A DNA stretch of 64,000 nucleotides from Bacteroidales bacterium (GTDB lineage: Bacteria; Bacteroidota; Bacteroidia; Bacteroidales; WCHB1-69), in the NCBI GenBank assembly GCA_045627805.1, contig JAZQOJ010000201.1, positions 59,467 through 123,466 of the forward strand, written 5' to 3'. This document shows positions 37,827-62,681 of the stretch, piece by piece. The notes below the pieces were generated by a model that saw only the letters and a list, made by a program, of their open reading frames with translations, ran no database searches and was not told where the DNA came from. Numbering within the stretch: the stretch's first letter is position 1; each line of letters starts with the position of its first letter. Position numbers and translations under genes: made by a program.

Positions 37827-40016
37827 ATGAAAATAAGAAGTTTGCTTTTGATAATGGTGTTGCTCGTTTTTGCGGGCAACATTCAGGCACAAAAAGAGAT
37901 TACCCTTCAGGGAATTTGGAAGGATTATACTTTTTATCCGAGGGGAATCCGTAGCTTTGAGTCGATGCCGAACAGCGATTACTATACGGTAGTGGATGCG
38001 TCGTCAATTTCAAAATTCAGTTTCCAGACGGGAGAGAAGGTTGGCGAAGTAGTGTCGGCGGAGGATTTGCGCAGTGCCAGTAACGGCGAGATTACGCTGC
38101 GCGACATCGACGAGTACGTTTTTGACGGTGCTTGCAACAAGTTGCTGATTTCTACCGAAGGCGAAAGTATCTACCGTCGCTCAATGGCTTCTTTCTATTA
38201 TGTTTACGATTTGCAGACGAAGAAAATGCAGAGCGTTTCCGACAAGTCGAAGGGAAAACTGAACTTCGCTGATTTTTCGGAGGATGGCAGCAAGGTTGTG
38301 TTCGTTCGCGACTACAATCTGTTTTATGTGGACTTGTCGAATGGCAAGGAGGTGCAGATTACTTTTGACGGCAAGGAGAATGCGATTCGCAATGGCTGGG
38401 CCGACTGGGTTTATGAAGAAGAATTGAGCCAGTCGAAGTACTATGCGTGGTCGCCTGACGGCAAAAAGATTGCTTACTATCGCTTTGATGAGAGCAATGT
38501 GAAGGAATTTTCGATGACGATGTGGGGCGGTTTGTATCCGGAGGAATATCGTTACAAATATCCGAAAGCGGGCGAGGACAACTCTTTGGTTGACATTTAT
38601 GTATATGACTTGGAAACGGGCAAGAGCGAACGCGTGGGCTTTGAGCGCGAGGATTGCTACTATCCGCGTATGTATTGGCTTTCCAATTCGCAGGATTTGG
38701 TGGTGCTGAAGTTGAACCGCTTGCAGAATCGCTTGGATTTTTATCGTTACAATACGATATCCAAGCAGATGGATGTGGTTTTAACAGATGAGAATGCCTG
38801 CTGGATTGACATCACCGATAATTACTATTTTCTGGATGATAATAAGACGGTTATTTTCTTGTCGGAACGTGATGGATTTCGTCATATTTACCGTGCCGAA
38901 TTTGGTCAGCAGCCGGTTCAGCTGACGCACGGACAGTATGAGGTAGCGGAGATCAGTGCCATTGATTTTCCCAAGAAGACCATTTATTATTTGTCGAATG
39001 AAACGGATGTTCCGAACCAGGATTTGTACAGCATTAATTTTGATGGAAAGAAAAAGAGAATGCTCACGGATGGAACGGGATGGAACAATCCCACATTCAA
39101 TAGCAATGCGCATTATTACTGCAACCAGTACAGCAATGCGAACACGCCGAGTGTTTACACGTTGCACGATGCGAGTGGAAAGAAACTTTACACGATTGAA
39201 GACAATGCGAAATTCCGTCAGGTGATGGCCGATTACGGTTATGCGAAGAAGGAAATGTTCACTTTCACTACGAGCGAGGGTGTGTTGTTGCACGGCTGGA
39301 TGTTGAAACCGGCCAATTTCAACAGCAACACTTCTCATAAGTATCCGGTGCTGATGTATGTTTATGGTGGTCCGGAAACGCCTCAGGTATTGAATTCTTT
39401 CAGCAATCCGTTTGATTTGGCGTGGTACCAGATGCTGGCGCAGAAGGGTTACATTGTGGTTTGTGTTGATGGTCGTGGCACTGGTCGCAAGGGCGATGCC
39501 TTCACCAAGGTGATTTACAAACAGATGGGCAAGTGCGAAGCAAAGGACCAGATTGAAACGGCTCAGTATTTGAAGACCCTGCCTTACGTTGACGGCGACA
39601 GAATCGGCATTTGGGGCTGGAGTTTTGGCGGCTATTTGTCAGCACTTTCACTGTTCAAAGGCGAGGGCGTTTTCAAAATGGCAATGTCGGTGGCACCGGT
39701 TACCAACTGGAGATATTACGACAATATTTACACGGAGCGATTCTTGCAGAAACCGCAGGACAATCCGAGCGGTTATGATGACAACTCGCCTTGTTTCTTT
39801 GCCGACAAGATGCAAGGGGACTTCCTTTTGATTCACGGCACGGCCGACGACAATGTGCATTTCCAGAATTCGATGGACCTGGTGACGCAGTTGAACAAGG
39901 CGGAAAAACAGTACGAACAGTTCTTCTATCCCAACAAAAACCATTCTATTTACGGCGGCAACACGCGTTACCATTTGTATGTGAAGCTGACGGATTTCGT
40001 ACTGAAGAATTTGTAG
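37827..40016 (+). CDS. dpp4: Dipeptidyl-peptidase IV (S9B family)
   Basis: Signal peptide, beta-propeller region with the DWVYEEE double-Glu motif, catalytic Ser motif GWSFGGY, and C-terminal HGTADDNVH. Confidence 0.9.
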   Translation: MKIRSLLLIMVLLVFAGNIQAQKEITLQGIWKDYTFYPRGIRSFESMPNSDYYTVVDASSISKFSFQTGEKVGEVVSAEDLRSASNGEITLRDIDEYVFDGACNKLLISTEGESIYRRSMASFYYVYDLQTKKMQSVSDKSKGKLNFADFSEDGSKVVFVRDYNLFYVDLSNGKEVQITFDGKENAIRNGWADWVYEEELSQSKYYAWSPDGKKIAYYRFDESNVKEFSMTMWGGLYPEEYRYKYPKAGEDNSLVDIYVYDLETGKSERVGFEREDCYYPRMYWLSNSQDLVVLKLNRLQNRLDFYRYNTISKQMDVVLTDENACWIDITDNYYFLDDNKTVIFLSERDGFRHIYRAEFGQQPVQLTHGQYEVAEISAIDFPKKTIYYLSNETDVPNQDLYSINFDGKKKRMLTDGTGWNNPTFNSNAHYYCNQYSNANTPSVYTLHDASGKKLYTIEDNAKFRQVMADYGYAKKEMFTFTTSEGVLLHGWMLKPANFNSNTSHKYPVLMYVYGGPETPQVLNSFSNPFDLAWYQMLAQKGYIVVCVDGRGTGRKGDAFTKVIYKQMGKCEAKDQIETAQYLKTLPYVDGDRIGIWGWSFGGYLSALSLFKGEGVFKMAMSVAPVTNWRYYDNIYTERFLQKPQDNPSGYDDNSPCFFADKMQGDFLLIHGTADDNVHFQNSMDLVTQLNKAEKQYEQFFYPNKNHSIYGGNTRYHLYVKLTDFVLKNL

Positions 40017-40046
40017 GGTCCAAGTTTTAAGAAACGAGAAAAAGAA

Positions 40047-40083
40047 AGAGAGACATAACGAAAAGTTGTGTCTCTCTTTTTTA
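40047..40083. terminator. Bidirectional hairpin terminator (serves dpp4 and, ancestrally, a convergent tRNA)
   Basis: AGAGAGACA (40047-40055) pairs with TGTCTCTCT (40069-40077). There is a T-run on the plus strand and TTTCTTTTT on the minus strand. Confidence 0.8.
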
Positions 40084-40084
40084 T

Positions 40085-40112
40085 GAGCGGTAAACGGGTC
40101 TCGAACCCGCGA
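40085..40112 (-). other. Orphan tRNA 3'-end fragment (T-arm plus 3' acceptor strand); putative att site of the integrated element
   Basis: The minus strand reads TCGCGGG-TTCGAGA-CCCGT-TTACCGC-T. That gives a T-stem/T-loop, a 7-nt acceptor strand and a U discriminator, resembling a tRNA-Gly 3' end. The sequence on its 5' side is AT-rich with no D or anticodon arms. Confidence 0.7.
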
Positions 40113-40231
40113 TAAAAAAAATTAATTGCACCAGATTACAACTTACTGATTTTCAGACTGTTTTTGTTTTCTCTATTGGGGTATTTGTTGCAAAAATGTT
40201 GCATTTTTTAATGTAAATAATTGATTTGTTG

Positions 40232-40627
40232 CTATTTATCGCCTAACTTTTCCACGATTGACAGCAACCGAGCTATCTGCGCATCCTTTTCCTTGATCTG
40301 CGCATCCTTTTCCTTGATCCGTTCGTCCAATAGATCTATCTGGGCACGCAGCACATCCGGACTGTCGCTATAGTACTGGCGGTTGTCAATATTGCCGTTA
40401 TTGTCATTCCCAACCACAACGTTACCATTATTTTTGGAGAAAACTTCCGAATTTTCCGAAAAATACATTTCCAATATTGAAAGATTCGCTTTATTAGGCT
40501 TGGTCTTACCTTCAATATAATTCTTTAGTGTTGAATTACTTAAATTTGTAGCTTTTGAAATTTGATTTAGCGGGATATTGGTATCCCGCAATTTTTTTAA
40601 AATTTTTTCTATCTGTAAATCAGTCAT
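40232..40627 (-). CDS. CI-like HTH (XRE-type) repressor with C-terminal coiled coil
   Basis: The N-terminus has an HTH (IPLNQISKATNLSNSTLKNYIEGKTKP). The C-terminus is heptad-rich (IKEKDAQIKEKDAQIARLLSIVEKL). It is divergent from a cro-like gene. Confidence 0.7.
   Translation of the reverse strand: MTDLQIEKILKKLRDTNIPLNQISKATNLSNSTLKNYIEGKTKPNKANLSILEMYFSENSEVFSKNNGNVVVGNDNNGNIDNRQYYSDSPDVLRAQIDLLDERIKEKDAQIKEKDAQIARLLSIVEKLGDK
40277..40318. repeat. Perfect 21-bp tandem duplication inside the repressor gene
   Basis: CTGCGCATCCTTTTCCTTGAT occurs twice (40277-40297 and 40298-40318), encoding IKEKDAQ twice, which is one added heptad in the coiled coil. Confidence 0.95.
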
Positions 40628-40641
40628 TTATAATTATTTTA

Positions 40642-40676
40642 TTGCAATATTGTAAATTATCTTTCCAATATTGGAA
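40642..40676. promoter_or_regulatory. Two palindromic operator candidates (CAATATTG core) in the divergent switch region
   Basis: TTGCAATATTGTAA (40642-40655) and the perfect palindrome TTCCAATATTGGAA (40663-40676) have centres 21 bp apart. A third copy, TTCCAATATTGAAA, lies at 40469-40482 inside the repressor gene. Confidence 0.55.
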
Positions 40677-40684
40677 AATATGTG

Positions 40685-40692
40685 TATTTTTG
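40685..40692 (+). promoter_or_regulatory. Candidate -7 box (TATTTTTG) for the rightward early operon
   Basis: TAnnTTTG match 9 nt after the second operator and 55 nt upstream of ATG 40747. Confidence 0.5.
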
Positions 40693-40746
40693 CACAAAAT
40701 TATTGAACTAATACAAGAATACAAATAAACAACAAATTTACAAAAT

Positions 40747-40947
40747 ATGAGAACGAAATTCAAAAAATTTTACGACGAATCCACCATCGGTATGAACCGA
40801 AATGAGAAAGCTGCATTCAGGCAGAAAATTTGCGACTACACCGGGAAGTCATACCACGTGATACAGAACTGGATCTATGGCGTAACAATCCCTACCCCAT
40901 TGGAGCAGAAAGCACTCAACCAGATTTTCGGCAAAGAAATTTACTAA
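40747..40947 (+). CDS. Cro/excisionase-like small HTH protein
   Basis: 66 aa. HTH-like segment FRQKICDYTGKSYHVIQNWIYGVTIP. First gene divergent from the repressor. Confidence 0.5.
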   Translation: MRTKFKKFYDESTIGMNRNEKAAFRQKICDYTGKSYHVIQNWIYGVTIPTPLEQKALNQIFGKEIY

Positions 40948-40948
40948 G

Positions 40949-41320
40949 ATGGAACCGGTGAAATACAAATTATTTAAGTGGAATGAACACGGAGTTTGCA
41001 CCAATCCAAAGATCCCAATATCTTTCCGATATAAAGGTTCAAGAAAAATTTTCAATGTGCTTACCGCAGAATGCGAGAGTGGATGGTCTTATTCTGTGGA
41101 ATACGAACTGGTAAACACTGGTGGAGGCTATTTACCGAGGTACGGAGGAACAGTAACAAACGAAAAAGAGTGTATCGTTGCCGGGCTGAAAGAGCTGCAC
41201 TGGCGGTTTCGACATAACATAGATTATAATCAAGATCGAAGCGATAAAGAGTCAGCAAGGCAGATGCTGCGCCGCGTGGAAGAGTTGTTAGCGGAGCACA
41301 GACAGTATGAACTATTTTAA
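40949..41320 (+). CDS. Hypothetical protein
   Basis: 123-aa ORF tightly coupled to its neighbours. No motif recognised. Confidence 0.5.
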   Translation: MEPVKYKLFKWNEHGVCTNPKIPISFRYKGSRKIFNVLTAECESGWSYSVEYELVNTGGGYLPRYGGTVTNEKECIVAGLKELHWRFRHNIDYNQDRSDKESARQMLRRVEELLAEHRQYELF

Positions 41321-41331
41321 TTGTAAGAATT

Positions 41332-41658
41332 ATGGATTACGGAGACTTTGAATTAAAAAGCAGGGCTGAAATCATTGAATTGACAAAAAATAGAGCCTGG
41401 AGGAAAAAGGTGTTTTCCAGGTCGTTAGATTCATTCAAAGTAAAAACCCTGATTGATAACGCGACTGTTGAACTGACAATAATAAAGGGCGGTTCCTACA
41501 GAGGGGAAACAATTTACAATTGCGGAATAGTAGTCAATGGGAAAACCATTAATGTGAAGAAATATGATGGTGTTCTCAACATTGAAAAACTTGTAATTCA
41601 ATGGTTAAGACGCTATGACATAGACAACGTAACGATCTACATAATAAATGATCGATGA
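41332..41658 (+). CDS. Hypothetical protein
   Basis: 108-aa ORF, co-oriented. No motif recognised. Confidence 0.5.
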   Translation: MDYGDFELKSRAEIIELTKNRAWRKKVFSRSLDSFKVKTLIDNATVELTIIKGGSYRGETIYNCGIVVNGKTINVKKYDGVLNIEKLVIQWLRRYDIDNVTIYIINDR

Positions 41659-41953
41659 TGCAATACATATCCACCATCAAAAAGCAATCATTATGAAATT
41701 CATATCAATCACCCTCGACAATATAAAGATCGTTGATGCCCATTCAAGGTTCGATCTCTTAGAATTGATTTGCAAACTGAATGAGAGGTTCAGCCAAGGA
41801 GAAATCGACCAATACACCATACTGAAGTGCGAAGACGGGATGCCAATTTGCGGGAGAAAGAGGTTTTTGCTAAGCAGCAACGACAGAGGGTTCATTCTTA
41901 ACGAATTACAATGGAGCAAACTGATAGACGACCTGGAAAAAGAAGTATGGTGA
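41648..41953 (+). CDS. Hypothetical protein (an alternative start at ATG 41693 is possible)
   Basis: 101-aa ORF overlapping the previous gene by 11 nt. No motif recognised. Confidence 0.45.
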   Translation: MIDDAIHIHHQKAIIMKFISITLDNIKIVDAHSRFDLLELICKLNERFSQGEIDQYTILKCEDGMPICGRKRFLLSSNDRGFILNELQWSKLIDDLEKEVW

Positions 41954-42008
41954 TAAAAACGGATAGTGGATGCCGTGAGTTCCACGAAAGGTTCTTTACA
42001 ATTGGGGT

Positions 42009-42039
42009 GTGGGCACCCGACGGAGTGCCCACTTTTTTT
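42009..42039 (+). terminator. Strong intrinsic terminator immediately upstream of the primase-helicase gene
   Basis: GTGGGCAC (42009-42016) pairs with GTGCCCAC (42025-42032), followed by T7. It ends 20 nt before ATG 42059 and no promoter box lies between them. Confidence 0.75.
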
Positions 42040-42058
42040 AACACAAAAAGAAAAAAAA

Positions 42059-44833
42059 ATGATAAACAGAATACTTGAAACCACGGACGGAGGTAAAGAC
42101 ATCATACTTTACTATTACCCACAGGCAGATGCTGCATTTTCCGGACGCAATCGTTTCTTTAAATTGAGAGATGAGAAGACAGCAAGCGCAGCGGTTAAGA
42201 AAATCGGCAATCAGTGGAAAGTCACCGACTTCGGCGACGACCAGCACGCAAAAAGCTGTTTCGATATTTGTATGAAGGAGGAAAACGTCTCATTCAACGA
42301 GGCGTTGCACCTGCTGGCAGAACGTTACGGGGTTTCCGAACGGCTTGATGAAAAGACAAACAAGCCGACGTTTACGGCGAGAGCCGCCAACAAGGATGAA
42401 AAGGAAGGCGATTTCCACTACGAGGCAAAAGACAATCCCACACCGGAGGAATTGAAGGTATTGGGGCCCTTTGTCACTGTTGATACCTGCAAAAGATATA
42501 GTTATTTCTCATTGAAGTCATACCAACTTACGAAACGTGACAAAGAAGGCACGCTCAAAACCTATATTTTTGAGAGCAACGAGAACTATCCGATATTCTT
42601 GCACGACTGTGGCGATTTTTGCAAGATCTACAAGCCGTTGGAGTTCAACAAGCAATATCGTTTCTTCTACAAGGGAAACAAACCGAAAGACTATATTAAC
42701 GGACTTGACGTATTGAAAGAAGCATATTCCCGTTTGATGAAGGATGCCGAACTCGATGACGATTCCATTCCGGGCTCAATGAAAAAGAAGCTGCCGGAGG
42801 CCATCTTTTGCAGTGGTGAACGCGACGCGCTCAATGCCGCCGGTTTGGGATATTACGCTTTATGGTTGAATAGTGAGACAGCGGATCTGGAGTGGAAGGA
42901 ATATATTGAGATCAGCAAGATGGTTGACAGAATATACAATGTGCCGGATATTGACGACACCGGTATTCGTATGGGGAAGGAGTTGGCTCTTCGCTATCTT
43001 GACATATATACGGTTTTCCTACCGGAGTGGGTGCGCAACTACAAGGATGCGCGTGGCAGACGGAGAAAGGATCTTCGGGATTTTCTGGAACTTCACCCCG
43101 ATAGGCGCGAGTTCGACAATATGCTGAAAACCGCACCCCGATGCTGCTTTTGGGAAACGGTGTATGCGGACAATAGAGCCAAACAGGAAATCAACACAGA
43201 GTATCTTCTTTTCTTCCTCGCCTGCAATGGTTTCGCTAAGATTTATGAAAAGAAGACCAAGACCGACAAATACATCCGGGTCAAAGATTTTGTCGTAAGT
43301 GAGTATCAACCCAAACAGATACGTAATTTCATCTACAACGAATTGAAAAGACGCAATATCGACAACTCTATCGTCAACCTGTTCTTGAACAGCAAGCGGA
43401 CTGGCAGCACGCTTGCCGACGACTTGAAAATCGCGGAACTCAAGTTTGAGCGCAACACACAGAACTCCAGAAGTCTCTTTTTTGAGAACGTTGCTTTAAA
43501 GATCACGGCGGACGCAATCACCGAAACGCGCACATCCGACATATCCAATTACGTGTGGGCGGACAACATCTGCCATCATTCATACAAGAAGCTGGAACCC
43601 GCGTTTGAATATTCGATTGATTCTCAAACCGGAGAAATCAATTTGCAGGTAAAGCATATCAGAAGCCACTATTTTCGTTTTCTCATCAACTCCAGCCGTA
43701 TATTTTGGAGACAGGAATTTGAAGAAAGAGCTACCTCGAATGCAGCCGTCAATGAAGAATACAACCAGAAGTATCGTTTCTCCATTGCCGGACAACGCCT
43801 CACCGCGACCGAGTGCCAGAAACAGACACGCCACCTGCTTAATAAAATGTACGCCATCGGCTACATTTTGCACCGCTATAAGAGAGAAAGTAACGCAATG
43901 GCTGTCTGGATTATGGAGAACAAACTAACCGAGGAGGATGAGAGTAGCGGCGGCAGCGGAAAGTCATTTATGCTGCGCGCTTTGAAGAAAATCGGATTGA
44001 TCAATGTGGCCACCATCAACGGTCGCGAAAAGAAGATGACCGAGAACAAGCACCTGTTAGACCGTATCAATTCAGTTACCGACCTGTTGCAGATTGACGA
44101 TGCGGATCGGTACTTTGACTTTTCCTACTTTTATGGTATGATTACCGGTGAAACCATCATCAACCGGAAGAACATCCAGAGCGAAGAACTGGATTTTATG
44201 GAATCCCCGGTATTGGCCTTCACCTCAAACTTTCCCCCACCGAGCGACGACCGTTCCACACTTCGCCGTATGCTCACGGTCGTTTTTTCCGACTACTACC
44301 ACGAACAAGGGCTTGACAACGTGTATCGAGAGACGCGTAAGGTTTCCGACGATTTCGGATATGATTTGTACGATGAAAATTATTCCGAACAATATTACAA
44401 TGAGGACATCAACTTTATGATCAACTGCCTGCAATTCTATCTTTCGGTTTCCGCGCAGGGAATTGTCATCCGCCCACCGATGGAGAATGTGATAAAGAGA
44501 ATCAACATCAGCAAGATGGGAGACAATTTCAAGGAATGGGCTGAGACGATATTTGCTCCGGATAGTGTGATGCTTGACGTACTTCTCGTACGGACTCAAC
44601 TTTTCAACAAGTTCAAGATTGACACGGGCGGCAACAAATGGAAGATGCAGCGTTTCAACAAGGCACTGGCCGCGTTTGTTGAAAACACCGACTATATCGA
44701 GGAACTGAATCCGAAGGAACTGCAAGGGGCAAGCGGCAGGATCATCCGTAAAGAAGGTTGCTTCACAGTGGAGTGCGTCTATCTGCGCACGAAAGGGCAA
44801 AAACTGAACGACTATATAATGCCAATTAGCTAA
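42059..44833 (+). CDS. Primase-helicase replication protein (Toprim primase + P-loop NTPase, P4-alpha/D5-like organisation)
   Basis: The start is moved to ATG 42059 because the terminator lies inside the longer GTG ORF. Toprim motifs CSGERDALNAAG and VPDIDDTG are present. Walker A-like SSGGSGKS and Walker B-like LLQIDDAD follow. The N-terminal region resembles a Cys-less CHC2 primase finger. Confidence 0.75.
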   Translation: MINRILETTDGGKDIILYYYPQADAAFSGRNRFFKLRDEKTASAAVKKIGNQWKVTDFGDDQHAKSCFDICMKEENVSFNEALHLLAERYGVSERLDEKTNKPTFTARAANKDEKEGDFHYEAKDNPTPEELKVLGPFVTVDTCKRYSYFSLKSYQLTKRDKEGTLKTYIFESNENYPIFLHDCGDFCKIYKPLEFNKQYRFFYKGNKPKDYINGLDVLKEAYSRLMKDAELDDDSIPGSMKKKLPEAIFCSGERDALNAAGLGYYALWLNSETADLEWKEYIEISKMVDRIYNVPDIDDTGIRMGKELALRYLDIYTVFLPEWVRNYKDARGRRRKDLRDFLELHPDRREFDNMLKTAPRCCFWETVYADNRAKQEINTEYLLFFLACNGFAKIYEKKTKTDKYIRVKDFVVSEYQPKQIRNFIYNELKRRNIDNSIVNLFLNSKRTGSTLADDLKIAELKFERNTQNSRSLFFENVALKITADAITETRTSDISNYVWADNICHHSYKKLEPAFEYSIDSQTGEINLQVKHIRSHYFRFLINSSRIFWRQEFEERATSNAAVNEEYNQKYRFSIAGQRLTATECQKQTRHLLNKMYAIGYILHRYKRESNAMAVWIMENKLTEEDESSGGSGKSFMLRALKKIGLINVATINGREKKMTENKHLLDRINSVTDLLQIDDADRYFDFSYFYGMITGETIINRKNIQSEELDFMESPVLAFTSNFPPPSDDRSTLRRMLTVVFSDYYHEQGLDNVYRETRKVSDDFGYDLYDENYSEQYYNEDINFMINCLQFYLSVSAQGIVIRPPMENVIKRINISKMGDNFKEWAETIFAPDSVMLDVLLVRTQLFNKFKIDTGGNKWKMQRFNKALAAFVENTDYIEELNPKELQGASGRIIRKEGCFTVECVYLRTKGQKLNDYIMPIS

Positions 44834-44846
44834 CCAACAAAAAACA

Positions 44847-45041
44847 ATGATTATGGAATTAGTGTTAAACGATTACGAACAGGAAAAGTTGAGGAAAATC
44901 TTATCCCCGATAAGAAAAAAGCTTTTGGTGAAGCGTGAAAAGTACAGGGACATCCACGATGGCGGCGAAGCCACCGCACGCCAGGAAACGACACTCTCAA
45001 AAACAGAGTGCTATTTGGAAGTGATTGAGAAATTTTTTTAG
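44847..45041 (+). CDS. Hypothetical small protein
   Basis: 64-aa ORF. No motif recognised. Confidence 0.4.
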   Translation: MIMELVLNDYEQEKLRKILSPIRKKLLVKREKYRDIHDGGEATARQETTLSKTECYLEVIEKFF

Positions 45042-45049
45042 TATCTTTG
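45042..45049 (+). promoter_or_regulatory. Candidate -7 box (TATCTTTG) for the toxin-antitoxin pair
   Basis: TAnnTTTG match 26 nt upstream of ATG 45075. Confidence 0.5.
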
Positions 45050-45074
45050 CAACCGACTTTTAATTTGTAATAAA

Positions 45075-45275
45075 ATGGCAGAAATCACATTGACATACGA
45101 TGGCAGAAATATAGCTGCAAAAAAAATGTTGGAAGCTATATTATCACTTGGTCTGTTTAAAAAGAAAGAAAAAAGAATGTCCGGATTGGACGAAGCATTG
45201 AAAGAAATTAAAGATGGAAAGGTCAATAGATATTCCACTGTTGATGAATTTGTAGAGAAGATGAAGAATGTTTAA
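45075..45275 (+). CDS. Putative type II antitoxin
   Basis: 66-aa ORF whose stop overlaps the toxin start by 8 nt. Assigned from position upstream of a YafQ-like toxin. Confidence 0.6.
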   Translation: MAEITLTYDGRNIAAKKMLEAILSLGLFKKKEKRMSGLDEALKEIKDGKVNRYSTVDEFVEKMKNV

Positions 45276-45543
45276 GATTCTAACCACTAATAAATTTGAA
45301 AAGGATTTTCAACGTTGCATCAAGCGAGGATTGGATATAAACATCATTACTAATGCGATGAAATTGTTGGAAATATCTGGAACATTACCACAAAGCTATC
45401 GTCCGCATAAGCTAACAGGGAATTATAAAGGATGCTGGGAATGCCATTTACAGTCAGACTGGCTTATGGTATGGCAACAGGACAACAATGAATTAACATT
45501 GCTCTTTACTGATACTGGGTCTCATTCCGATTTGTTCAAATAA
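45268..45543 (+). CDS. RelE/YafQ-family type II toxin (mRNA interferase)
   Basis: 91 aa. FEKDFQRCIKRG...HKLTGNYKGCWECHLQSDWLMVWQQD matches the YafQ pattern (H.L.G...G..ECHI.PDWLLIY). Confidence 0.8.
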   Translation: MFKILTTNKFEKDFQRCIKRGLDINIITNAMKLLEISGTLPQSYRPHKLTGNYKGCWECHLQSDWLMVWQQDNNELTLLFTDTGSHSDLFK

Positions 45544-45597
45544 ACATCTAAGAGCAATATTACAGCAAGTTATGGGAAAGGAGAATCCATCCGCACC

Positions 45598-45627
45598 ACC
45601 GGTTCAGAAATGGACCGGTTTTTTTTT
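45598..45627 (+). terminator. Rho-independent terminator
   Basis: ACCGGT(TC) pairs with (GG)ACCGGT (45598-45619), followed by T9. Confidence 0.75.
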
Positions 45628-45675
45628 GCATAAAAATCTTTCGGGAAAACCTATGCTTTCAACACGTCATTTTTT

Positions 45676-45766
45676 TTGTAACTTTGTAACCTTATATAAA
45701 AAAATCAACTTATATTATTAAAAATAAATAGGTTACAAAAGGTTACAAAAAGTTACAAAGTTACAA
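45676..45766. repeat. Iteron cluster 1: 2x TTGTAAC, a 41-bp AT-rich spacer, then 4x GTTACAA
   Basis: TTGTAAC at 45676 and 45684. GTTACAA at 45732, 45742, 45752 and 45760 (10, 10 and 8-bp spacing). The spacer is nearly pure A/T. Confidence 0.85.
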
Positions 45767-45824
45767 AAAAACGAGTTTTTTCGTTTTTTTTGTTTCAGCA
45801 GGAAATTATTCGGTTTTTTTACCA

Positions 45825-45832
45825 TACCTTTG
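45825..45832 (+). promoter_or_regulatory. Candidate -7 box (TACCTTTG, extended TTTGCAGCG)
   Basis: TAnnTTTG match about 60 nt after the iterons and about 270 nt upstream of ATG 46103. It shares the TTTGCAGC extension with other boxes in the element. Confidence 0.45.
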
Positions 45833-46102
45833 CAGCGTTTTCCGAAAGGAAACGCGTGTGTGGCGGTTTGCCAGCTTTCCACACCGCCCAATTACCCCAA
45901 TTTTTTTTGTGATTACTTTCAGAAAGTGGTTGCCCAGGTGAATATTTCCGTCGTTTTTCGGTAAACTGATGTGCGAAAACCGCCACTTACCGGTAATTCC
46001 ACACGTCGAAAACGGTTTACTATGACGGGAAACCATTTTAAAATACGATAACATATTAATTATCAAGTAATTGTTTTATAAATCAAATCAAAAGGCAAAA
46101 AA

Positions 46103-46738
46103 ATGGATAACACAGAATCAAGAAAATTGCAGCCGATTACGGTAAAGTTATCGCCTGAAACCTACGACAGATGGAAGGAACTCACCCTGGAGGGAGCTTT
46201 CGAGACCAACGGTCAACTTGTGGCAGCACTTATCGAGAACTACTATTCACCGATGAAGGCAAACAAGGATAATGAAAAGACCATTGCTCAGCAGAAGGAA
46301 ACCATTTCTTCTTTGTCGGGTCGGATTTCCGAAATGGAAAAAGAACTCACGGCACTCCGTCATTCCCTGGCTGAGGAACAGGGAAACAACGAAAACCTTT
46401 GCGGAAAAAACGAGGAACTGGCAGGCAGAATTTCCGAACTGGAAGACCGTAATGCCGAAATGGGCTTGCAGATCAGCGAGGCAGAGAAAAAGCAGAAACA
46501 GTTGGCCGGCCACCTGATTGTACCGGTTTCCCCACTCGAAACAGAATGCCTGAAATATCTGAGCGAACGCGAATGCAAACGCCGTGGGCGCAACGACATC
46601 ACGCCGGAAATCTTTTTCCGCTACTGCGTTTCCGAAATGCTGATTAAGGGAAACAAGTTTTCCGTTGACTGTGTTCCCGACCGCGTAATCAATGAGATCA
46701 AAGCTCGCCTTAATACCGAAAAACAACCAACCGAATAA
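46103..46738 (+). CDS. Putative ribbon-helix-helix / coiled-coil protein
   Basis: The N-terminus ITVKLSPETYDRWKELT is RHH-like and the central part is a long coiled coil. Function unknown. Confidence 0.55.
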   Translation: MDNTESRKLQPITVKLSPETYDRWKELTLEGAFETNGQLVAALIENYYSPMKANKDNEKTIAQQKETISSLSGRISEMEKELTALRHSLAEEQGNNENLCGKNEELAGRISELEDRNAEMGLQISEAEKKQKQLAGHLIVPVSPLETECLKYLSERECKRRGRNDITPEIFFRYCVSEMLIKGNKFSVDCVPDRVINEIKARLNTEKQPTE

Positions 46739-46759
46739 GAGAACTATGAATGAGATGGT
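46722..46759 (+). repeat. 38-bp direct repeat, copy A
   Basis: AACAACCAACCGAATAAGAGAACTATGAATGAGATGGT differs by 1 nt from copy B, 275 bp downstream. It spans the stop of 46103..46738 and an ATG. Confidence 0.9.
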
Positions 46760-46841
46760 GAGACGTACAGGAAGAAAGAAGTTGGCTTTTAAGACGATGT
46801 ATAAAATCGAACTTAAATCAAGAAAAAAGCGGAAAAAATAA
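46746..46841 (+). CDS. Possible 31-aa highly basic peptide
   Basis: MNEMVRRTGRKKLAFKTMYKIELKSRKKRKK. Its first 4-5 codons are copied from the start of 47021..47299 through the direct repeat, so it may be an insertion artefact rather than a gene. Confidence 0.25.
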   Translation: MNEMVRRTGRKKLAFKTMYKIELKSRKKRKK

Positions 46842-46857
46842 ATCTTCTCCGCTTTTT
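46828..46857. terminator. Hairpin terminator, potentially bidirectional
   Basis: AGCGGA (46828-46833) pairs with TCCGCT (46848-46853). T-runs follow on both strands. Confidence 0.6.
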
Positions 46858-46944
46858 CGCCGTAAGCGAGGGTATATGTGAAATCTCCCTCAAACGTCCA
46901 GAACGATCTTACGCACTATGTCTTGCGTATGGCAAAACCTGCTG

Positions 46945-46952
46945 CAAAAATA
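46945..46952 (-). promoter_or_regulatory. Minus-strand -7-like box (TATTTTTG, extended TTTGCAGC)
   Basis: The plus strand reads GCTGCAAAAATACAC. Its reverse complement matches TAnnTTTGCAGC and points leftward toward hairpins and the 46828 terminator. Confidence 0.3.
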
Positions 46953-46996
46953 CACAAATATTTTAATAAAAAATAAATACCATAAAAATTTTAATC

Positions 46997-47034
46997 AACA
47001 ACCAACCGAATAAGTGAACTATGAATGAGATGGT
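46997..47034 (+). repeat. 38-bp direct repeat, copy B
   Basis: AACAACCAACCGAATAAGTGAACTATGAATGAGATGGT. It contains the start codon of 47021..47299. Confidence 0.9.
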
Positions 47035-47299
47035 AATCAAATCACTAATAAAACCGTTGCTTCCGAAAGCGAAAACCTTTGTCGCCTCCGGAAAAATTGA
47101 CGGATTTCTGCAAGAAAGAAAAAAACAGTTTTCCAACCAGGTCAACATTAATGAGACCGTTGAGATACTGGTAACTACCGAAGGGAAGGACGAATACGTT
47201 AATTTCATCGCGTTGGAAAATGGCCTGAATCACAGATTCCGTGTGATTTCTCAAATGAGACTTACAGAACTTCTTGTTTCAATCATAGATCAAATCTAA
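47021..47299 (+). CDS. Hypothetical protein
   Basis: 92-aa ORF. No motif recognised. Confidence 0.5.
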   Translation: MNEMVIKSLIKPLLPKAKTFVASGKIDGFLQERKKQFSNQVNINETVEILVTTEGKDEYVNFIALENGLNHRFRVISQMRLTELLVSIIDQI

Positions 47300-47300
47300 T

Positions 47301-47945
47301 ATGGGAGTAGGTATTATCAATGGTGATGTGCAGCCGGAAGGCGGCGCACCACAGACAAAAGATGCTTTTGATGAGTTTCTGGATGCTTTGAAGCAACCCA
47401 AACAGAATTACCGTCCCATTGACGAGCCACCGGCGGAAGATCCAGAGGATTACGAAGATGATACGGATAATCCGGAAGAATCCGGCGACACATATCTCAC
47501 CCCGGAAGAGATAAAGACGCAGCGCAACAATTTCGAGTTTTCCTTAGTACCGGCGGAAACCATTGTCGAGTGCATTGATATGGGCTACTGTGGCGTTGGC
47601 AAGCTCATCGTCAAAGAGGAAGTCGAGGGTGCGACGGAAGACGAAAAGACCAATCTGACGAAGGCGTGGGCGGATTATCTGAAAGATAAGAATGCCGACC
47701 TGTCGCCCGGATGGGTGCTGGTCATTATGCTGCTGATTGTTTACGCTCCGAAGATCTATACCTGTTTCGAGGTCCGCAAACTAAATCAGGAAAACCAGGA
47801 ACTTCAGGCGGCGAATGAGGAACTGGCAGCTCAGAATGAATACCTGATCCGTAGAATGGAGGCGTATGATAAGAAAAAGAAAGCAAAGAAAGCCGCTCAG
47901 GAAGAGCCAACGGAAACGGAAAGCGAGCCCAAGCCAAAAAACTAA
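47301..47945 (+). CDS. Hypothetical membrane protein with acidic N-terminus and C-terminal coiled coil
   Basis: Acidic Pro/Glu/Asp-rich N-terminus, one TM helix (WVLVIMLLIVYAPKIY), then a QELQAANEELAAQNEYL coiled coil and a Lys-rich tail. Confidence 0.55.
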   Translation: MGVGIINGDVQPEGGAPQTKDAFDEFLDALKQPKQNYRPIDEPPAEDPEDYEDDTDNPEESGDTYLTPEEIKTQRNNFEFSLVPAETIVECIDMGYCGVGKLIVKEEVEGATEDEKTNLTKAWADYLKDKNADLSPGWVLVIMLLIVYAPKIYTCFEVRKLNQENQELQAANEELAAQNEYLIRRMEAYDKKKKAKKAAQEEPTETESEPKPKN

Positions 47946-47948
47946 AAG

Positions 47949-48365
47949 ATGAATATTAAGAATACTGATTATAAAACCATTAAAGGCAATGAATATATCA
48001 AGGTTGGTAGGATTACTATGTCTGTCGCAAGGAAATCACATATAAAGGCGGCCAACATTATGATTGATATGAATCATATAAAGCACATTGCACAAAAACA
48101 CGAATTAGAACTTTCCAAACTCGGAATCTCTTCAATAGACTTTGTGAAATGCATTGCTTCTTCTTACACAGAAATTAGAGTCCTTGGAAATTCGCTATAT
48201 CTCGTAGCACCTAATGATTCCAAACAGACATTTGTAGCTATCGTTAAAATGAATTACAACATTGGGAAGGGATTCTGGGAAGTAAAAACGGCTATCCCGA
48301 TGAGAATAGCCGAAGTTCTAAAAAAAGAACTTATTTGGAAAAAGGGAGCGAACCCCTTAAAGTAG
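47949..48365 (+). CDS. Small protein of the 'NH.KHIA.KH ... GFWEVKTA' family (possible barnase/EndoU/RelE-like nuclease domain)
   Basis: Paralogue of 59512..59937, with shared motifs I..NH.KHIA.KH..EL..LGI, MNY....GFWEVKTA.P and KKEL.W. The nuclease idea rests only on my memory of PBECR-type domains. Confidence 0.5.
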   Translation: MNIKNTDYKTIKGNEYIKVGRITMSVARKSHIKAANIMIDMNHIKHIAQKHELELSKLGISSIDFVKCIASSYTEIRVLGNSLYLVAPNDSKQTFVAIVKMNYNIGKGFWEVKTAIPMRIAEVLKKELIWKKGANPLK

Positions 48366-48416
48366 TATAAAAAACTACTGTATCCTTCTGCAATTAAGCA
48401 ATTCGCTGATACGCTG

Positions 48417-48424
48417 CAAAAATA
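48417..48424 (-). promoter_or_regulatory. Minus-strand -7-like box (TATTTTTG, extended TTTGCAGCGT)
   Basis: The plus strand reads ACGCTGCAAAAATACAA, 52 nt after the stop of 47949..48365, and points back into that gene. Confidence 0.3.
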
Positions 48425-48463
48425 CAATCTTTTTTCTTATAAAACATAATCTTGAACAAAAAA

Positions 48464-48574
48464 ATGAAAAAAAACGCAAAAGACAGCACAAATGCAAATC
48501 AGTTAATGAGTACAAGTCGATTCTCCAAATTTATAATTGGGAATCCGCACAATATTTTGGACTGCACGGATTAA
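48464..48574 (+). CDS. Possible 36-aa ORF
   Basis: MKKNAKDSTNANQLMSTSRFSKFIIGNPHNILDCTD fills the gap before the ATPase gene. No other support. Confidence 0.2.
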   Translation: MKKNAKDSTNANQLMSTSRFSKFIIGNPHNILDCTD

Positions 48575-48601
48575 TGTAAAAGCCACTATTCTAATAAACC
48601 A

Positions 48602-49192
48602 ATGGAAGATAAACCAGAACGTATCGCAACCAGCGTTATTTTGTGCGGAATCAACGGAACCGGGAAGACGACATTGCTTCGGAATATTCTCACCGAAATG
48701 ATGAATAGTGGGCAGCGGGCGTTGATCGTAACTCCGGATCCGCTCGAATGGGGTGGCGTGAAGGAAGTCAATGACCGGAACCAGTCGGAAATATCCACAT
48801 TTGAAGGAGCACGGAAAATCATCTATTACAAGGGCTGTATGGAGCTCATACAGAAATACTACTACAACGGTATTCTGGTTTTTGATGATGCGCGTGTCTA
48901 TATCCGGGCGCAAAGCGACGACTTTATGACCTGGCTCCAGATACGCCGCCGACAGGCGGGTATAGACCTGTTCACTGTAACTCACGGACTCACACAGGTG
49001 CCGCCAATATTCTTCACCTTTGCCTCAACGCTGATACTCTTTTACACCAAAGACAATATCAAACGTCGCGGCGACTATGTGGATGAAGCCGACTTTGAGG
49101 AAATACAGCAGGCCAAAAAGCGAATCTCGCAGATTGTAACCACTGGCAACAAATATTATTACGAAATCATCAAGTTAGACAAACGCATTTAA
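48602..49192 (+). CDS. Small P-loop ATPase, Zot-like (alternatively an A32/FtsK-HerA-type packaging ATPase)
   Basis: 196 aa. Walker A GINGTGKTT and Walker B ILVFDDA. Then RRRQAGIDLFTVTHGLTQV, which resembles the HRHxGxDhhhhTQ motif of Zot/pI-type assembly ATPases as I recall it. Confidence 0.65.
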   Translation: MEDKPERIATSVILCGINGTGKTTLLRNILTEMMNSGQRALIVTPDPLEWGGVKEVNDRNQSEISTFEGARKIIYYKGCMELIQKYYYNGILVFDDARVYIRAQSDDFMTWLQIRRRQAGIDLFTVTHGLTQVPPIFFTFASTLILFYTKDNIKRRGDYVDEADFEEIQQAKKRISQIVTTGNKYYYEIIKLDKRI

Positions 49193-49202
49193 TATCAAGA
49201 AA

Positions 49203-49619
49203 ATGGAAGAATTCATCGAACCCGTTTACCAGGCAGTCGCCCCGGAAACAAAACCCAAAATGAGCAAAGAAAAAATCATCATCATCGCCCTTGCCGTCGT
49301 GTGTGCCGGAGCAATCGTTTACTGCATCATACTGAAAAAGAGGTTGAAATCCAAACCGAAGGACAATGTGCATCGCAGCCGTCCGCTTGTAATCCAGGAC
49401 GATCCGGATGAGGATGAAGACGAAGACTTTAATGATGATCCTGGAAATACGGAATTACCGTCCCACGATAATGAAGATCTAAACGTAACTCCAGACAGTA
49501 ACATTATGGCTGTATTGAATAAAATCCGCAGCGGCGAAATCACAAGGACTGACGCGGCCAAGGAGTTGGGGGTTAGCAGACGAACAATCGGAAGATATTA
49601 TGCAAAATACATCGGATAA
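49203..49619 (+). CDS. Membrane-anchored protein with acidic linker and C-terminal HTH
   Basis: TM helix IIIIALAVVCAGAIVYCIIL, an acidic run DDPDEDEDEDFNDD, and a C-terminal resolvase-like HTH (ITRTDAAKELGVSRRTIGRYYAKY). Confidence 0.65.
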   Translation: MEEFIEPVYQAVAPETKPKMSKEKIIIIALAVVCAGAIVYCIILKKRLKSKPKDNVHRSRPLVIQDDPDEDEDEDFNDDPGNTELPSHDNEDLNVTPDSNIMAVLNKIRSGEITRTDAAKELGVSRRTIGRYYAKYIG

Positions 49620-49794
49620 CAAACTCACCGCACAACCGAGAACCCTATCGGAATTGGCCTGCGCTTATCACGTAAGCAAGCGGACATTCAAGAAATGGCT
49701 TTCTTGTGATACGTTGAAGGACATTCAACCTATTGGCAATTTCTATTCCATCGCACAGATCACACGAATAATCAACCATCTTGGAGAACCGTAA
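49600..49794 (+). CDS. DUF4248-like small HTH protein
   Basis: LSELACAYHVSKRTFKKWL...FYSIAQITRIINHLGEP resembles the Bacteroides DUF4248 pattern that ends in LGEP (from memory). It overlaps the previous gene by 20 nt. Confidence 0.55.
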   Translation: MQNTSDNKLTAQPRTLSELACAYHVSKRTFKKWLSCDTLKDIQPIGNFYSIAQITRIINHLGEP

Positions 49795-49844
49795 GTGTGC
49801 AAAAGTGTACAAAATCGCTAAAAAACGGACAAAAAAGTGCAGAA

Positions 49845-49878
49845 GTGCGCAAAAGTGATAATCGTGACTTTTGCGCAC
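49845..49878 (+). promoter_or_regulatory. Perfect 12-bp inverted repeat (hairpin or operator) abutting a promoter box
   Basis: GTGCGCAAAAGT (49845-49856) and ACTTTTGCGCAC (49867-49878) are separated by 10 nt. Related half-sites GTGCAAAAGTG and GTGCAGAAGTG lie just upstream. Confidence 0.6.
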
Positions 49879-49881
49879 TTG

Positions 49882-49889
49882 TATTTTTG
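49882..49889 (+). promoter_or_regulatory. Candidate -7 box (TATTTTTG, extended TTTGCAGC)
   Basis: TAnnTTTG match 37 nt upstream of ATG 49926. Confidence 0.5.
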
Positions 49890-49925
49890 CAGCTCAAAAT
49901 TAATCAAAAACAAAAAAAACAGAAA

Positions 49926-50096
49926 ATGAAGAAATTTTTAACCGACAATTTACACATCATTGTGATTGTGGTGGCCGTGATCGCAGTTTGTGCGCTTGTC
50001 AAAGTTCGTAGAATTGAAAACGGCAACACGACTAAAACTGAAACAAAAGACATCATCAATCCCAAATGCGGCGAAACCGATGATGACGAAGAATAG
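49926..50096 (+). CDS. Small single-TM protein with acidic C-terminus
   Basis: 56 aa from ATG 49926, since the track ORF start at 49797 would run through the hairpin and promoter. TM helix HIIVIVVAVIAVCALV and tail GETDDDEE. Confidence 0.55.
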   Translation: MKKFLTDNLHIIVIVVAVIAVCALVKVRRIENGNTTKTETKDIINPKCGETDDDEE

Positions 50097-50119
50097 TTAA
50101 CAACATAAATTTTTTGAAT

Positions 50120-58053: not shown

Positions 58054-58512
58054 ATGAAAAAAAAGAAAATAGCCGCGATAATCATTGTTGCCGTTGTAAT
58101 AGCAATCATCGTGATCGTCTGTCTGTTGGTTTCAAAAAGAAAGAGATATTCCGCATATCAGGATTCACTCAAATATGATCCATCCGTGTTCCCGCTCAAG
58201 AAGGGAAGTAGAGGAAAAGAGGTGGAGGAAATTCAGAAATATATGAATGCCGTGTTCTCGTCAAAGATGTACAAAGAGAAATTTGGAGAACACGAACTTT
58301 TGGATGTGGATGGTATTTGGGGTGATAAAACCGAAGCCGCCGTCAACGGATTTATGGCGACATCTTCGATTGAAGAAGCGATGTACGGTTGTCTAATGAC
58401 TTATAAGAAATATAAGAATTTTGACAAGTTTTACGAAGCTGTCGAAAGCGGTAAGGAATCCTGTCAATACACCACCCCGTCAAGGTCTGTTACGGTTTCT
58501 GTCAATGGATGA
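58054..58512 (+). CDS. N-terminally anchored peptidoglycan-binding-domain protein
   Basis: TM IAAIIIVAVVIAIIVIVCLLV. KKGSRGKEVEEIQKYMN...VDGIWGDKTEAAVNGF is PG_binding_1-like. Confidence 0.65.
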   Translation: MKKKKIAAIIIVAVVIAIIVIVCLLVSKRKRYSAYQDSLKYDPSVFPLKKGSRGKEVEEIQKYMNAVFSSKMYKEKFGEHELLDVDGIWGDKTEAAVNGFMATSSIEEAMYGCLMTYKKYKNFDKFYEAVESGKESCQYTTPSRSVTVSVNG

Positions 58513-58548
58513 TTCGCCTTTCAATTGATGGTCGGTAAACGATAAAGA

Positions 58549-58953
58549 ATGAAAGATTTACAGATTCCAAAAGGAACCAAGCCAGAAGATGTAAAAAAAC
58601 GCTGTCAGATTATCAAATCACAGTTAAAAAAATTAAAGGGGAAAACAATCATTTGCCCTTGCTTAGGTAATGTTCCTGTTGACATATCTGCAAGAAGCAT
58701 AGATGAAATCTCGACACACGCAGCAAAAAAATATTCCTCCACCCTTGCCGCATTGGATATAAAAAATGCGATAAAAAAAGCAAGGTTTTTCAGAATGCAT
58801 ATACCTAAAGACAATATGCAGCAAAGGAAAATGGGATTTCTTTTCCTGTATGTATTAAAATGTGAATCTTCAAATGGAGAAACGATAAAAATAACTATTG
58901 GAGTAAGGGAACGCCCCATTAAATTCTTACAATACTGTATAACAGTAGAGTAA
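58549..58953 (+). CDS. Hypothetical 134-aa protein (possibly another small nuclease-like fold)
   Basis: VPVDISARSIDEISTHAAKK followed by beta-rich FLFLYVLKCESSNGETIKITIGV. Its layout resembles the 47949/59512 family loosely, and it is followed by the same downstream motif. Confidence 0.4.
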   Translation: MKDLQIPKGTKPEDVKKRCQIIKSQLKKLKGKTIICPCLGNVPVDISARSIDEISTHAAKKYSSTLAALDIKNAIKKARFFRMHIPKDNMQQRKMGFLFLYVLKCESSNGETIKITIGVRERPIKFLQYCITVE

Positions 58954-59026
58954 TAAAAAAAAGGTGGTTACTCTGAATCTTTCCCGACTATGATACTAGT
59001 CTTGTACCAACCACCAAAGGACGCTG

Positions 59027-59034
59027 CAAAAATA
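59027..59034 (-). promoter_or_regulatory. Minus-strand -7-like box (TATTTTTG, extended TTTGCAGCGT)
   Basis: The plus strand reads ACGCTGCAAAAATACAAAAT, 70 nt after the stop of 58549..58953. A GGTGGTT/AACCACC hairpin (58963-59016) lies between the box and that gene. Confidence 0.3.
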
Positions 59035-59319
59035 CAAAATAAAATCAAATTACAACATCCAATCAAAATATTTATGAAAAAGTCGAACACCAGCACCCGC
59101 GCAAGCAAGATCCTTCGTGAAAGCCGTAAGGAGTACCAGTCAATCCTACAGAAGAACATCAGCAAGCAAACCGGTAAAAAGAACGTCTGCAAGGCCGCTA
59201 AGGAGGCAAGCAAGCAGTACGACAAGATGAGTTGGGCCGAGGCACTCCGGATTGCCGCATCAAACGGAACCGGAACGAAGAAAGTGAAAAAGACGGCTTC
59301 CAAGCCGAAACATAAAAAG
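59027..59319 (+). repeat. 293-bp dispersed repeat, copy 1 (5' region and first ~80 codons)
   Basis: Aligns with 59965-60257 at a 938-nt offset with few substitutions. Covers the upstream motif, the RBS region and the codons for MKKSNTSTRASKILRESRKEYQSILQKN...KKVKKTA. Confidence 0.9.
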
Positions 59320-59511
59320 ACCAGTAAAAGAACAGAAGAAAGAATCTCTTATTTCAAGAGAATCGGAGTGACCTTTTTTGATGAGCTGCCAAAAGGTTGG
59401 AAACTTGATGAATCGGGCACAACAGCACCAAACGGATATGCGTGGTGCAATAACGGGGTGAGTAGATTTTCGAACCAATACCGTATCGCATTAGTGAAGA
59501 TTGATGAGTAG
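59074..59511 (+). CDS. Lys-rich basic protein, short form (145 aa)
   Basis: Start at ATG 59074. The N-terminal ~80 aa are nearly identical to those of 60012..61064. The unique C-terminus is PKGWKLDESGTTAPNGYAWCNNGVSRF. Confidence 0.6.
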   Translation: MKKSNTSTRASKILRESRKEYQSILQKNISKQTGKKNVCKAAKEASKQYDKMSWAEALRIAASNGTGTKKVKKTASKPKHKKTSKRTEERISYFKRIGVTFFDELPKGWKLDESGTTAPNGYAWCNNGVSRFSNQYRIALVKIDE

Positions 59512-59937
59512 GTGATGATAAGAGTGGGACGTCTAAGGAGAACTGTCGCAAATGCAGTCCGTAGAGAATGCGCTGACATCTATATTTCAGATAATTATGT
59601 AAAGCATATAGCAATTCATCATAAAAAGGAACTGATGCAGCTGGGTATAGAGGCCTTGGCCTACGTCAGAATAATTGTCTCTAATTTCAATCAAATCAGA
59701 AAGGGGACAGGAAATTCATTGTTATTGATTATGTGCAGCGATGAGATGAGCCATATTGCAGCAATTGAAATGAATTATTCAACTAAAGATGGATTTTGGG
59801 AAGTCAAAACAGCACAACCCCGATTGAAAACCAAGGTTGAAAAAAAAGAATTGCTGTGGGGAATTGCCCAAGTTCCCAAACGTTCCTGCAACGCTTCCCA
59901 TTTTCTATCAAAGACAAAAAAAGCAGGGTCTAAATAG
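59512..59937 (+). CDS. Second member of the 'KHIA.HH ... GFWEVKTA' family
   Basis: DNYVKHIAIHHKKELMQLGI, MNYSTKDGFWEVKTAQP and KKELLW are shared with 47949..48365. Confidence 0.5.
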   Translation: MMIRVGRLRRTVANAVRRECADIYISDNYVKHIAIHHKKELMQLGIEALAYVRIIVSNFNQIRKGTGNSLLLIMCSDEMSHIAAIEMNYSTKDGFWEVKTAQPRLKTKVEKKELLWGIAQVPKRSCNASHFLSKTKKAGSK

Positions 59938-59964
59938 TATGGCCATCAGACACAACAATTTTGG

Positions 59965-59972
59965 CAAAAATA
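59965..59972 (-). promoter_or_regulatory. Minus-strand -7-like box (TATTTTTG)
   Basis: The plus strand reads TTGGCAAAAATACAAAAT, 28 nt after the stop of 59512..59937. It is part of repeat copy 2. Confidence 0.25.
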
Positions 59973-60257
59973 CAAAATAAATTCAAATTCCAACATCAAA
60001 TCAAAATATTTATGAAAAAGTCGAACACCAGCACCCGCGCAAGCAAGATCTTACGGGAAAGCCGTAAGGAGTACCAGTCAATCCTACAGAAGAACATCAG
60101 CAAGCAAACCGGCAAAAAGAACGTCTGCAAGGCCGCAAAGGAGGCGAGCAAACAGTACGACAAAATGAGTTGGCCCGAGGCACTCCGGATTGCCGCATCA
60201 AACGGAACCGGAACGAAGAAAGTGAAAAAGACGGCCCCCAAGCCGAAACCTAAAAAG
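59965..60257 (+). repeat. 293-bp dispersed repeat, copy 2
   Basis: See copy 1. Confidence 0.9.
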
Positions 60258-61064: not shown

Positions 61065-61108
61065 TTCCAGGAATGAATCGTTAAAGTGAACAATCAAAAC
61101 GAAGTGTT

Positions 61109-61585: not shown

Positions 61586-61629
61586 TTCCAGGAATGAATC
61601 GTTAAAGTGAACAATCAAAACGAAGTGTT

Positions 61630-62106: not shown

Positions 62107-62150
62107 TTCCAGGAATGAATCGTTAAAGTGAACAATCAAAACGAAGTGTT

Positions 62151-62677: not shown

Positions 62678-62681
62678 AATT

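Follow-up and report, generated by a model that had tools for sequence, protein, structure and literature searches.

In classical tRNA-targeting temperate elements such as satellite phage P4, the attP site copies the 3' part of a tRNA gene, integration regenerates the gene, and the integrase gene comes to lie beside the regenerated tRNA. Islands integrated in tRNA genes (tDNAs) carry the Islander signature, which consists of a displaced end fragment of the tDNA, a cognate full-length tDNA, and a tyrosine integrase inside an island of 2-200 kb (PMC4383910). The full tDNA and its 3' fragment share a replicon and an orientation, and the fragment is the downstream one of the two (PMC4383910). Fragments of the 3' end were found in 3,760 of the 3,919 islands of the Islander survey, and sites in the T-stem region form one of the two main classes of attP sites (PMC4383910).

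We analysed a 64,000-nucleotide stretch of Bacteroidales DNA (the window), in which a short tRNA-like sequence lies between a peptidase gene and a series of phage-like genes. This sequence, at 40085-40112, is very probably the displaced 3' end of a host tRNA-Gly(CCC) gene and the attR core of a temperate phage-like element of about 25 kb, which extends from 40113 to beyond the end of the window. Coordinates of the features discussed below are collected in Table 1.

Table 1. Features of the host-element junction and of the visible part of the element
Feature	Position	Strand	Evidence
Host DPP-IV (S9 peptidase) gene, chromosomal flank on the B' side	37827..40016	+	DPPIV_N 9e-89, Peptidase_S9 1e-55 (Pfam)
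Hairpin with A-tract before and T-tract after; likely bidirectional intrinsic terminator (DPP-IV on +, original tRNA-Gly on -)	40042..40082	.	Fold
Orphan 3' fragment of tRNA-Gly(CCC); very probable att core at the repressor-side junction (attR)	40085..40112	-	28/28 identity to intact genes
Visible part (23.9 kb) of the integrated phage-like element	40113..64000	.	Phage-like genes; no match to DPP-IV downstream regions
AT-rich element-side arm beside the core (presumed P arm of attR)	40113..40231	.	Similarity end at 40112; GC drop
HTH repressor-like gene, first of the element	40232..40627	-	Pfam HTH_3; PHROG transcriptional regulator/repressor families
DUF5906 primase/helicase-like replication protein, 955 aa	41966..44833	+	Pfam DUF5906; phrog_28855 4e-29
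RelE/YafQ-like toxin gene (cargo)	45268..45543	+	phrog_7251 2e-25; homologue in L063
Three endolysin-like genes, lysis region 56231..58512	56231-56773, 57217-57675, 58054-58512	+	PHROG endolysin families 1e-31, 6e-28, 2e-06
Tyrosine integrase C-terminus, 122 codons, running off the window end	63630..64000	-	Pfam Phage_integrase (PF00589) 2e-08; PHROG integrase families

The tRNA-Gly(CCC) fragment and its boundary

Read on the minus strand from 40112 to 40085, the fragment begins with two variable-loop nucleotides (TC), followed by a 5-bp T-stem (GCGGG and CCCGT) that encloses a canonical TTCGAnn loop (TTCGAGA), the 7-nt 3' strand of the acceptor stem (TTACCGC), U73 (T), and the next base (C). 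On the plus strand, 40080-40119 reads tttatGAGCGGTAAACGGGTCTCGAACCCGCGAtaaaaaaa. The fragment extends from about tRNA position 47 to position 73 and into the first trailer bases, and it represents the 3' end of a real tRNA gene and not an interior part. The T-arm and acceptor strand are present as the original prediction had described them. The AT-rich sequence that it noted where the D and anticodon arms belong was likewise found to be TTTTTTTTA, which is unrelated to a tRNA. ARAGORN, one of the checks that it had proposed, called no tRNA gene anywhere in the 64-kb window, and Rfam gave no tRNA match at E<=10 within 39000-41500; we therefore regard the fragment as an orphan. It is intergenic, located between the stop of the DPP-IV gene (40016) and the end of the repressor ORF (40232), and overlaps no sequence coding for a conserved protein domain.

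A scan of metagenome contigs for the 24-nt core of the fragment returned 10 contigs. The core was the exact 3' end of an intact tRNA-Gly(CCC) gene in nine of them, and the tenth was cut by the contig end. In the intact genes the sequence around the core runs GCGGTAATAGCTCAGTTGGTAGAGCGGCAGCTTCCCAAGCTGCAGGTC, then GCGGGTTCGAGACCCGTTTACCGC, then TCA. The tentative assignment to tRNA-Gly with U73 was thus correct, and the nine intact genes sharpen it to the anticodon CCC. When the window was aligned to these loci by BLASTN, identity covered 26-32 nt, apart from one 40-nt alignment at 92.5%, and the alignments ended at base 40112 in nine loci and at 40110 in one. Similarity to the tRNA ceases sharply at 40112/40113. 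The ten contigs serve to identify the tRNA; they have no protein-coding gene in common with the window and hence are not empty sites of this locus. The exact fragment had no match among viral contigs, and a 26-mer of it occurs in the window as a single copy even when up to 3 mismatches are permitted.

The idea that so short a sequence resembles a tRNA by chance, or that it is a tRNA-like motif with a function of its own, such as an RNA processing signal, and has no tie to integration, could draw on its length and on the lack of any score with the Rfam tRNA model. It is, however, effectively refuted, as all 28 nucleotides agree with those of real tRNA-Gly(CCC) genes, and 100 shuffles produced no match to the 26-mer. 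Orphan fragments in five relatives (four integrated, one of attP type), described below, moreover occupy the same location in the same orientation. We consider the probability of this explanation to be negligible.

The host flank and the element side

On the host side, the DPP-IV gene and the gene upstream of it (35266-37758) show synteny with MAGs of rumen Bacteroidales, at 74-83% amino acid identity. Between DPP-IV and the fragment lies a hairpin in which 40042-40059 pairs with 40065-40082 around a GAAAA loop. On the plus strand it folds at -26.1 kcal/mol (z = -7.75) and is followed by T6; on the minus strand its z is -4.4 and TTTCTTTTTCTC follows. The hairpin with T-runs on both strands that had been proposed is real, and it is strong. 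A simple consensus terminator scan did not list it at 40042-40082, probably because part of the T-run is taken up in the maximal stem. Elsewhere, intact tRNA-Gly(CCC) genes have a hairpin and T-run within a few bases of their 3' end, often facing a convergent gene, and a reasonable reading is that one terminator served both DPP-IV and the former tRNA.

The further suggestion that DPP-IV and the tRNA were an ancestral convergent pair fared less well, with one distant relative pointing to it and the closest relatives pointing away. The distant one (L023, DPP-IV 60% identical) is the only relative in which DPP-IV faces a tRNA-Gly gene; this is the GCC isoacceptor, with 4 differences in the 28 positions and a tRNA-Leu after it. 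The four closest relatives whose sequence continues past DPP-IV (74-75% identical) lack any tRNA in the next 10 kb. A search for a same-species empty site, that is, attB beside the same flank, found none, the closest DPP-IV relatives being 74-75% identical. The 3' flank of DPP-IV differs among the four closest relatives (L009, L010, L011, and L017); two of them, L009 and L017, have about 130 nt in common after DPP-IV and then diverge. This flank looks like a variable spot in the lineage even where no tRNA is present. The host part of the window also contains a single plus-strand ORF of 8,199 codons (24.6 kb) at 8023-32622, which presumably encodes a giant protein of the surface or adhesin type; the 7.5-10 kb upstream of DPP-IV in related MAG loci showed no counterpart.

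On the other side of the junction the GC content falls to 0.35 in 40000-40999, as against 0.46-0.49 in the flanking host genes, and the genes from 40113 onward had no match in the 10 kb downstream of DPP-IV in relatives. In no related genome did the sequence from 40113 onward continue as contiguous core; such continuity would have told against the original prediction. The visible element is at least 23.9 kb long, inside the 2-200 kb range of islands. Its replication protein matches DUF5906 of Pfam at E 1e-05 and 26.6 bits, below the 27.6-bit cutoff, and the second of its endolysin-like genes (57217-57675) matches the Peptidase_M15_3 gene of a relative (L152). At the far end, the integrase has the orientation that such an element should show, and its visible C-terminus includes the catalytic HxxR...Y region and is 62-63% identical to the C-termini of the full-length integrases of L066 and L152. 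The element also holds many small ORFs without family matches. PHROG and Pfam scans of 30 ORFs recognised no capsid, portal, or full terminase gene, although divergent structural genes are possible; the weak structural matches were limited to one partial terminase (profile positions 321-503 of 555, in a 196-aa ORF) and one virion-structural match. We call the element phage-like; it may represent a prophage that is complete or defective, or a satellite. Reassignment of a stop codon was considered as a cause of the short ORFs and rejected, as TAA is the usual stop (30 of 43) and reading it as sense merges frames trivially. The last complete protein of the window had an exact match only on a 1.4-kb Logan contig; SRR21151032 is an example of a sample in which the element occurs.

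Several repeats were observed within the element. The repressor-like ORF 40232-40627(-) contains a perfect 21-nt tandem duplication at 40275-40319 (ATCTGCGCATCCTTTTCCTTG, 2.1 copies), by which seven codons are duplicated in frame. Three tandem paralogous genes of 158, 158, and 156 aa, 80-88% identical to one another, lie on the plus strand at 61109-62621. Each has an N-terminal hydrophobic segment, none has a family match, and they are 1 kb from the integrase with a 248-aa gene between; a Logan contig (L001) encodes a variant that is 91-95% identical. The sequence TTTGTAACC has seven exact copies in the window, all in two intergenic clusters of the element, at 45675-45767 and 62681-62787. Counting copies with one mismatch, there are six per cluster, in opposed arrays (2 forward and 4 reverse; 4 forward and 2 reverse), and similar GTTACAA motifs are present beside the 3' end of the L066 integrase. 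These clusters may be operator or iteron arrays, or arm sites of the recombinase.

Related elements and their integration sites

The 955-aa DUF5906 protein, which has 572 homologues, was used as a marker for finding relatives. A 100% identical copy (P0055) is encoded on a 154.6-kb NCBI contig, taken to be the source contig of the window. Homologues of 48-57% identity are found in elements with the same left-end layout. Four of these are integrated (L062, L063, L064, and L068), and in each an orphan T-arm with acceptor 3' strand is located on the minus strand exactly between the host genes and the repressor end. The orphan derives from a different tRNA in each case, and ARAGORN makes no call there. 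The DUF5906 proteins of L063, L064, and L068 are 48-56% identical to that of the window. An HTH gene is present at the repressor end of all four, with one or two small genes intervening in three. A fifth relative, L066 (DUF5906 50% identical, integrase 62% identical to the window C-terminus), has an attP layout, reading on the minus strand from repressor-side genes, which are unannotated, through an orphan fragment and about 115 nt to the integrase. Including the window, six members of this group (five integrated, one of attP type) have an orphan 3' fragment in the same position beside the same gene module. The other orphan fragments had no match among 23 tRNAs in the fetched loci, the L066 fragment being 3 mismatches from tRNA-Met. 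IMG/VR contained no close relative of the 955-aa protein. A profile scan did recover 80 distant DUF5906 relatives there (33-45% identical), which we do not count as support, as most lack the arrangement.

The arrangement predicted for the window, with an intact tRNA by the integrase and a repeat at the repressor end, is seen complete in one relative, on contig JAZSBO010000021.1. Its far end was reached from L062, on a 190-kb contig, by way of a cluster member (P0343) of a mid-element protein, which led to L152; L062 and L152 overlap by 10,951 identical nucleotides. L152 carries a 388-aa integrase on the minus strand, 63% identical over 121 aa to the window C-terminus, and an intact tRNA-Gln(CTG) on the same strand 119 nt upstream of it. 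An exact 31-nt repeat of the 3' part of this tRNA, GTCAGGGTTCGAGTCCTTGTGGGGCAACAAA, is present at the repressor end, 20,239 nt away, where the orphan fragment lies beside an HTH repressor and a host terminator. This repeat and the stretch of tRNA identity in the window have the same starting point, 2 nt ahead of the T-stem. Like the window, this element runs from host and terminator through orphan fragment (-), HTH repressor (-), small plus-strand genes, DUF5906, and lysis gene to integrase (-) and tRNA (-), and its integrase has the same ...NAPDF end. It differs in its target, tRNA-Gln(CTG) as opposed to tRNA-Gly(CCC), and in size, 20.2 kb as opposed to the predicted 24.8 kb or so of the window's element. 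Homologues in the window were detected for just 6 of its 37 genes, and the integrases are 63% identical, so that the support it lends comes from architecture and integrase family, not from near-identity. In L152 (16189-16451), the tRNA-Gln(CTG) gene (-) stands back-to-back with a divergent tRNA-Arg(CCG) gene (+), 118 nt apart; insertion of the element thus took place at the margin of a small group of tRNA genes.

The integrase family was also followed more widely. A word-indexed protein search with the integrase C-terminus returned only short fragments, at most 79% identical, and an exhaustive search of representatives returned full-length integrases at most 64% identical to the C-terminal 122 aa of the window. 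With no close full-length homologue, the target of the window's integrase cannot be read from a close one. Two truncated integrase matches (P0001 and P0005) were remnants in unrelated contexts and were set aside as uninformative. In five phage contigs whose integrases are 55-64% identical to the window C-terminus, an orphan 3' fragment of tRNA-Val(GAC) lies 130-150 nt upstream of int. Two more contigs have the same fragment followed by a terminator, with no integrase, and look like attR. In L004 an intact tRNA-Val(TAC) is located directly upstream of int. Taken together, the relatives display the complete attL/attR/attP picture.

Two Logan contigs of related elements (L067 and L069) end 3 nt past the orphan tRNA fragment, and two 47.8-kb contigs (L150 and L151) with a related element (97% identity) end inside the integrase C-terminus. 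The ends of these four fit branching of the assembly graph at att sites where integrated and free or empty forms coexist in a sample.

Origin of the junction and comparison with known systems

Integration into the 3' end of a tRNA gene, as originally proposed, is supported by a tRNA-Gly 3' end placed between host DNA and a phage-like element that has an integrase at its far end on the minus strand. According to this model, the free element would carry its attP core between the repressor-side arm and the integrase gene, and the core would reproduce the tRNA sequence that begins two bases ahead of the T-stem and ends a few bases beyond the discriminator. Recombination by the tyrosine integrase would take place between this core and its identical counterpart in the tRNA gene of the chromosome. 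In the integrated state, an intact tRNA directly upstream of int would consist of the host's 5' two-thirds and one copy of the core, and the other copy would remain on the old terminator and the convergent DPP-IV gene, with element DNA replacing the D and anticodon arms. The order expected on the minus strand is tRNA, int, element, repressor, fragment, terminator. Using the 388-aa integrase and 119-nt spacer of L152 as a guide, we predict that the integrase extends from 63630 to about 64796 (-), that an intact tRNA-Gly(CCC) lies at about 64,900-65,000 (-), and that the element measures about 24.8 kb; the exact length of its repeat we likewise infer from the model.

The junction could instead be a relic, that is, a true attR scar left by an element that is now defective or rearranged, with the tRNA or repeat at the far end damaged or absent, or with an integrase that belongs to a second element in tandem at the same tRNA, in which case 40113-64000 would not be a single excisable unit. 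Most ORFs are indeed short and without family matches, the terminase-like match is partial with no capsid or portal gene recognised, tandem arrays at one tDNA are known (PMC4383910), and the assemblies of related elements in L150 and L151 break inside the integrase. Yet the repressor, replication, and lysis genes and the integrase C-terminus are open and follow the same order as in the bounded relative, which looks intact and is itself typified by small ORFs, and no second copy of the core is present inside the window, even at 3 mismatches. We judge a relic to be unlikely. Less likely still is that a non-site-specific insertion or rearrangement destroyed the tRNA-Gly gene, in which case the core would not be duplicated, the tRNA would not be regenerated, and the 5' two-thirds of the gene would be at the other breakpoint or lost. 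Such an event would agree with the visibility of one end alone in the window, but it has to contend with a break 2 nt before the T-stem, as in the 31-nt repeat of the bounded relative, with an orphan 3' fragment at the same place in all six members of the group (five integrated, one of attP type), and with a tyrosine integrase of the same family at the far end.

Site-specific integration into tRNA-Gly(CCC) therefore remains our preferred reading. It fixes the boundary of the element to the base (40112/40113), names the target, and allows a region of about 25 kb to be annotated as integrated foreign DNA and not as core genome. As a standard attR scar, the fragment is the ordinary footprint of tRNA-gene integration, textbook biology that implies no new mechanism; what is mildly new is that related Bacteroidales elements reuse one att design on several tRNAs. 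The evidence leaves evenly balanced the broader view that the window's element is one of an undescribed clade of small (~20-25 kb) temperate elements of Bacteroidales, with one architecture and with integrases switched among at least six tRNA targets at the same T-stem crossover position. The common architecture would be int, an attP of a tRNA 3' end, a repressor, and the DUF5906 replication module. The targets would comprise Gly-CCC, Gln-CTG, and four others, with tRNA-Val in more distant relatives, and the integrases would be 60-65% identical to that of the window in the catalytic C-terminus. If this were true, the clade would offer natural integrase/att pairs useful for studying how target specificity changes in tyrosine integrases, and orthogonal integration tools for gut and rumen Bacteroidales.

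The likeness to satellite phage P4 is in the general logic of attP and tRNA regeneration; host phylum and gene content differ. With respect to the Islander islands, the window differs in that its element and integrase have no close characterised relative, the best full-length integrase representatives being about 60% identical over the C-terminal 122 aa, and in that its cognate full tRNA is predicted, beyond the window end; in the relative assembled from L062 and L152 the cognate full-length tDNA is present. In other respects the window resembles those islands closely, with an intergenic 3' tDNA end fragment that reaches the tRNA 3' end, a tyrosine integrase inside, and a size of about 25 kb, and its core covers the T-stem region, which corresponds to the 'T-stem region' class of that survey (PMC4383910).
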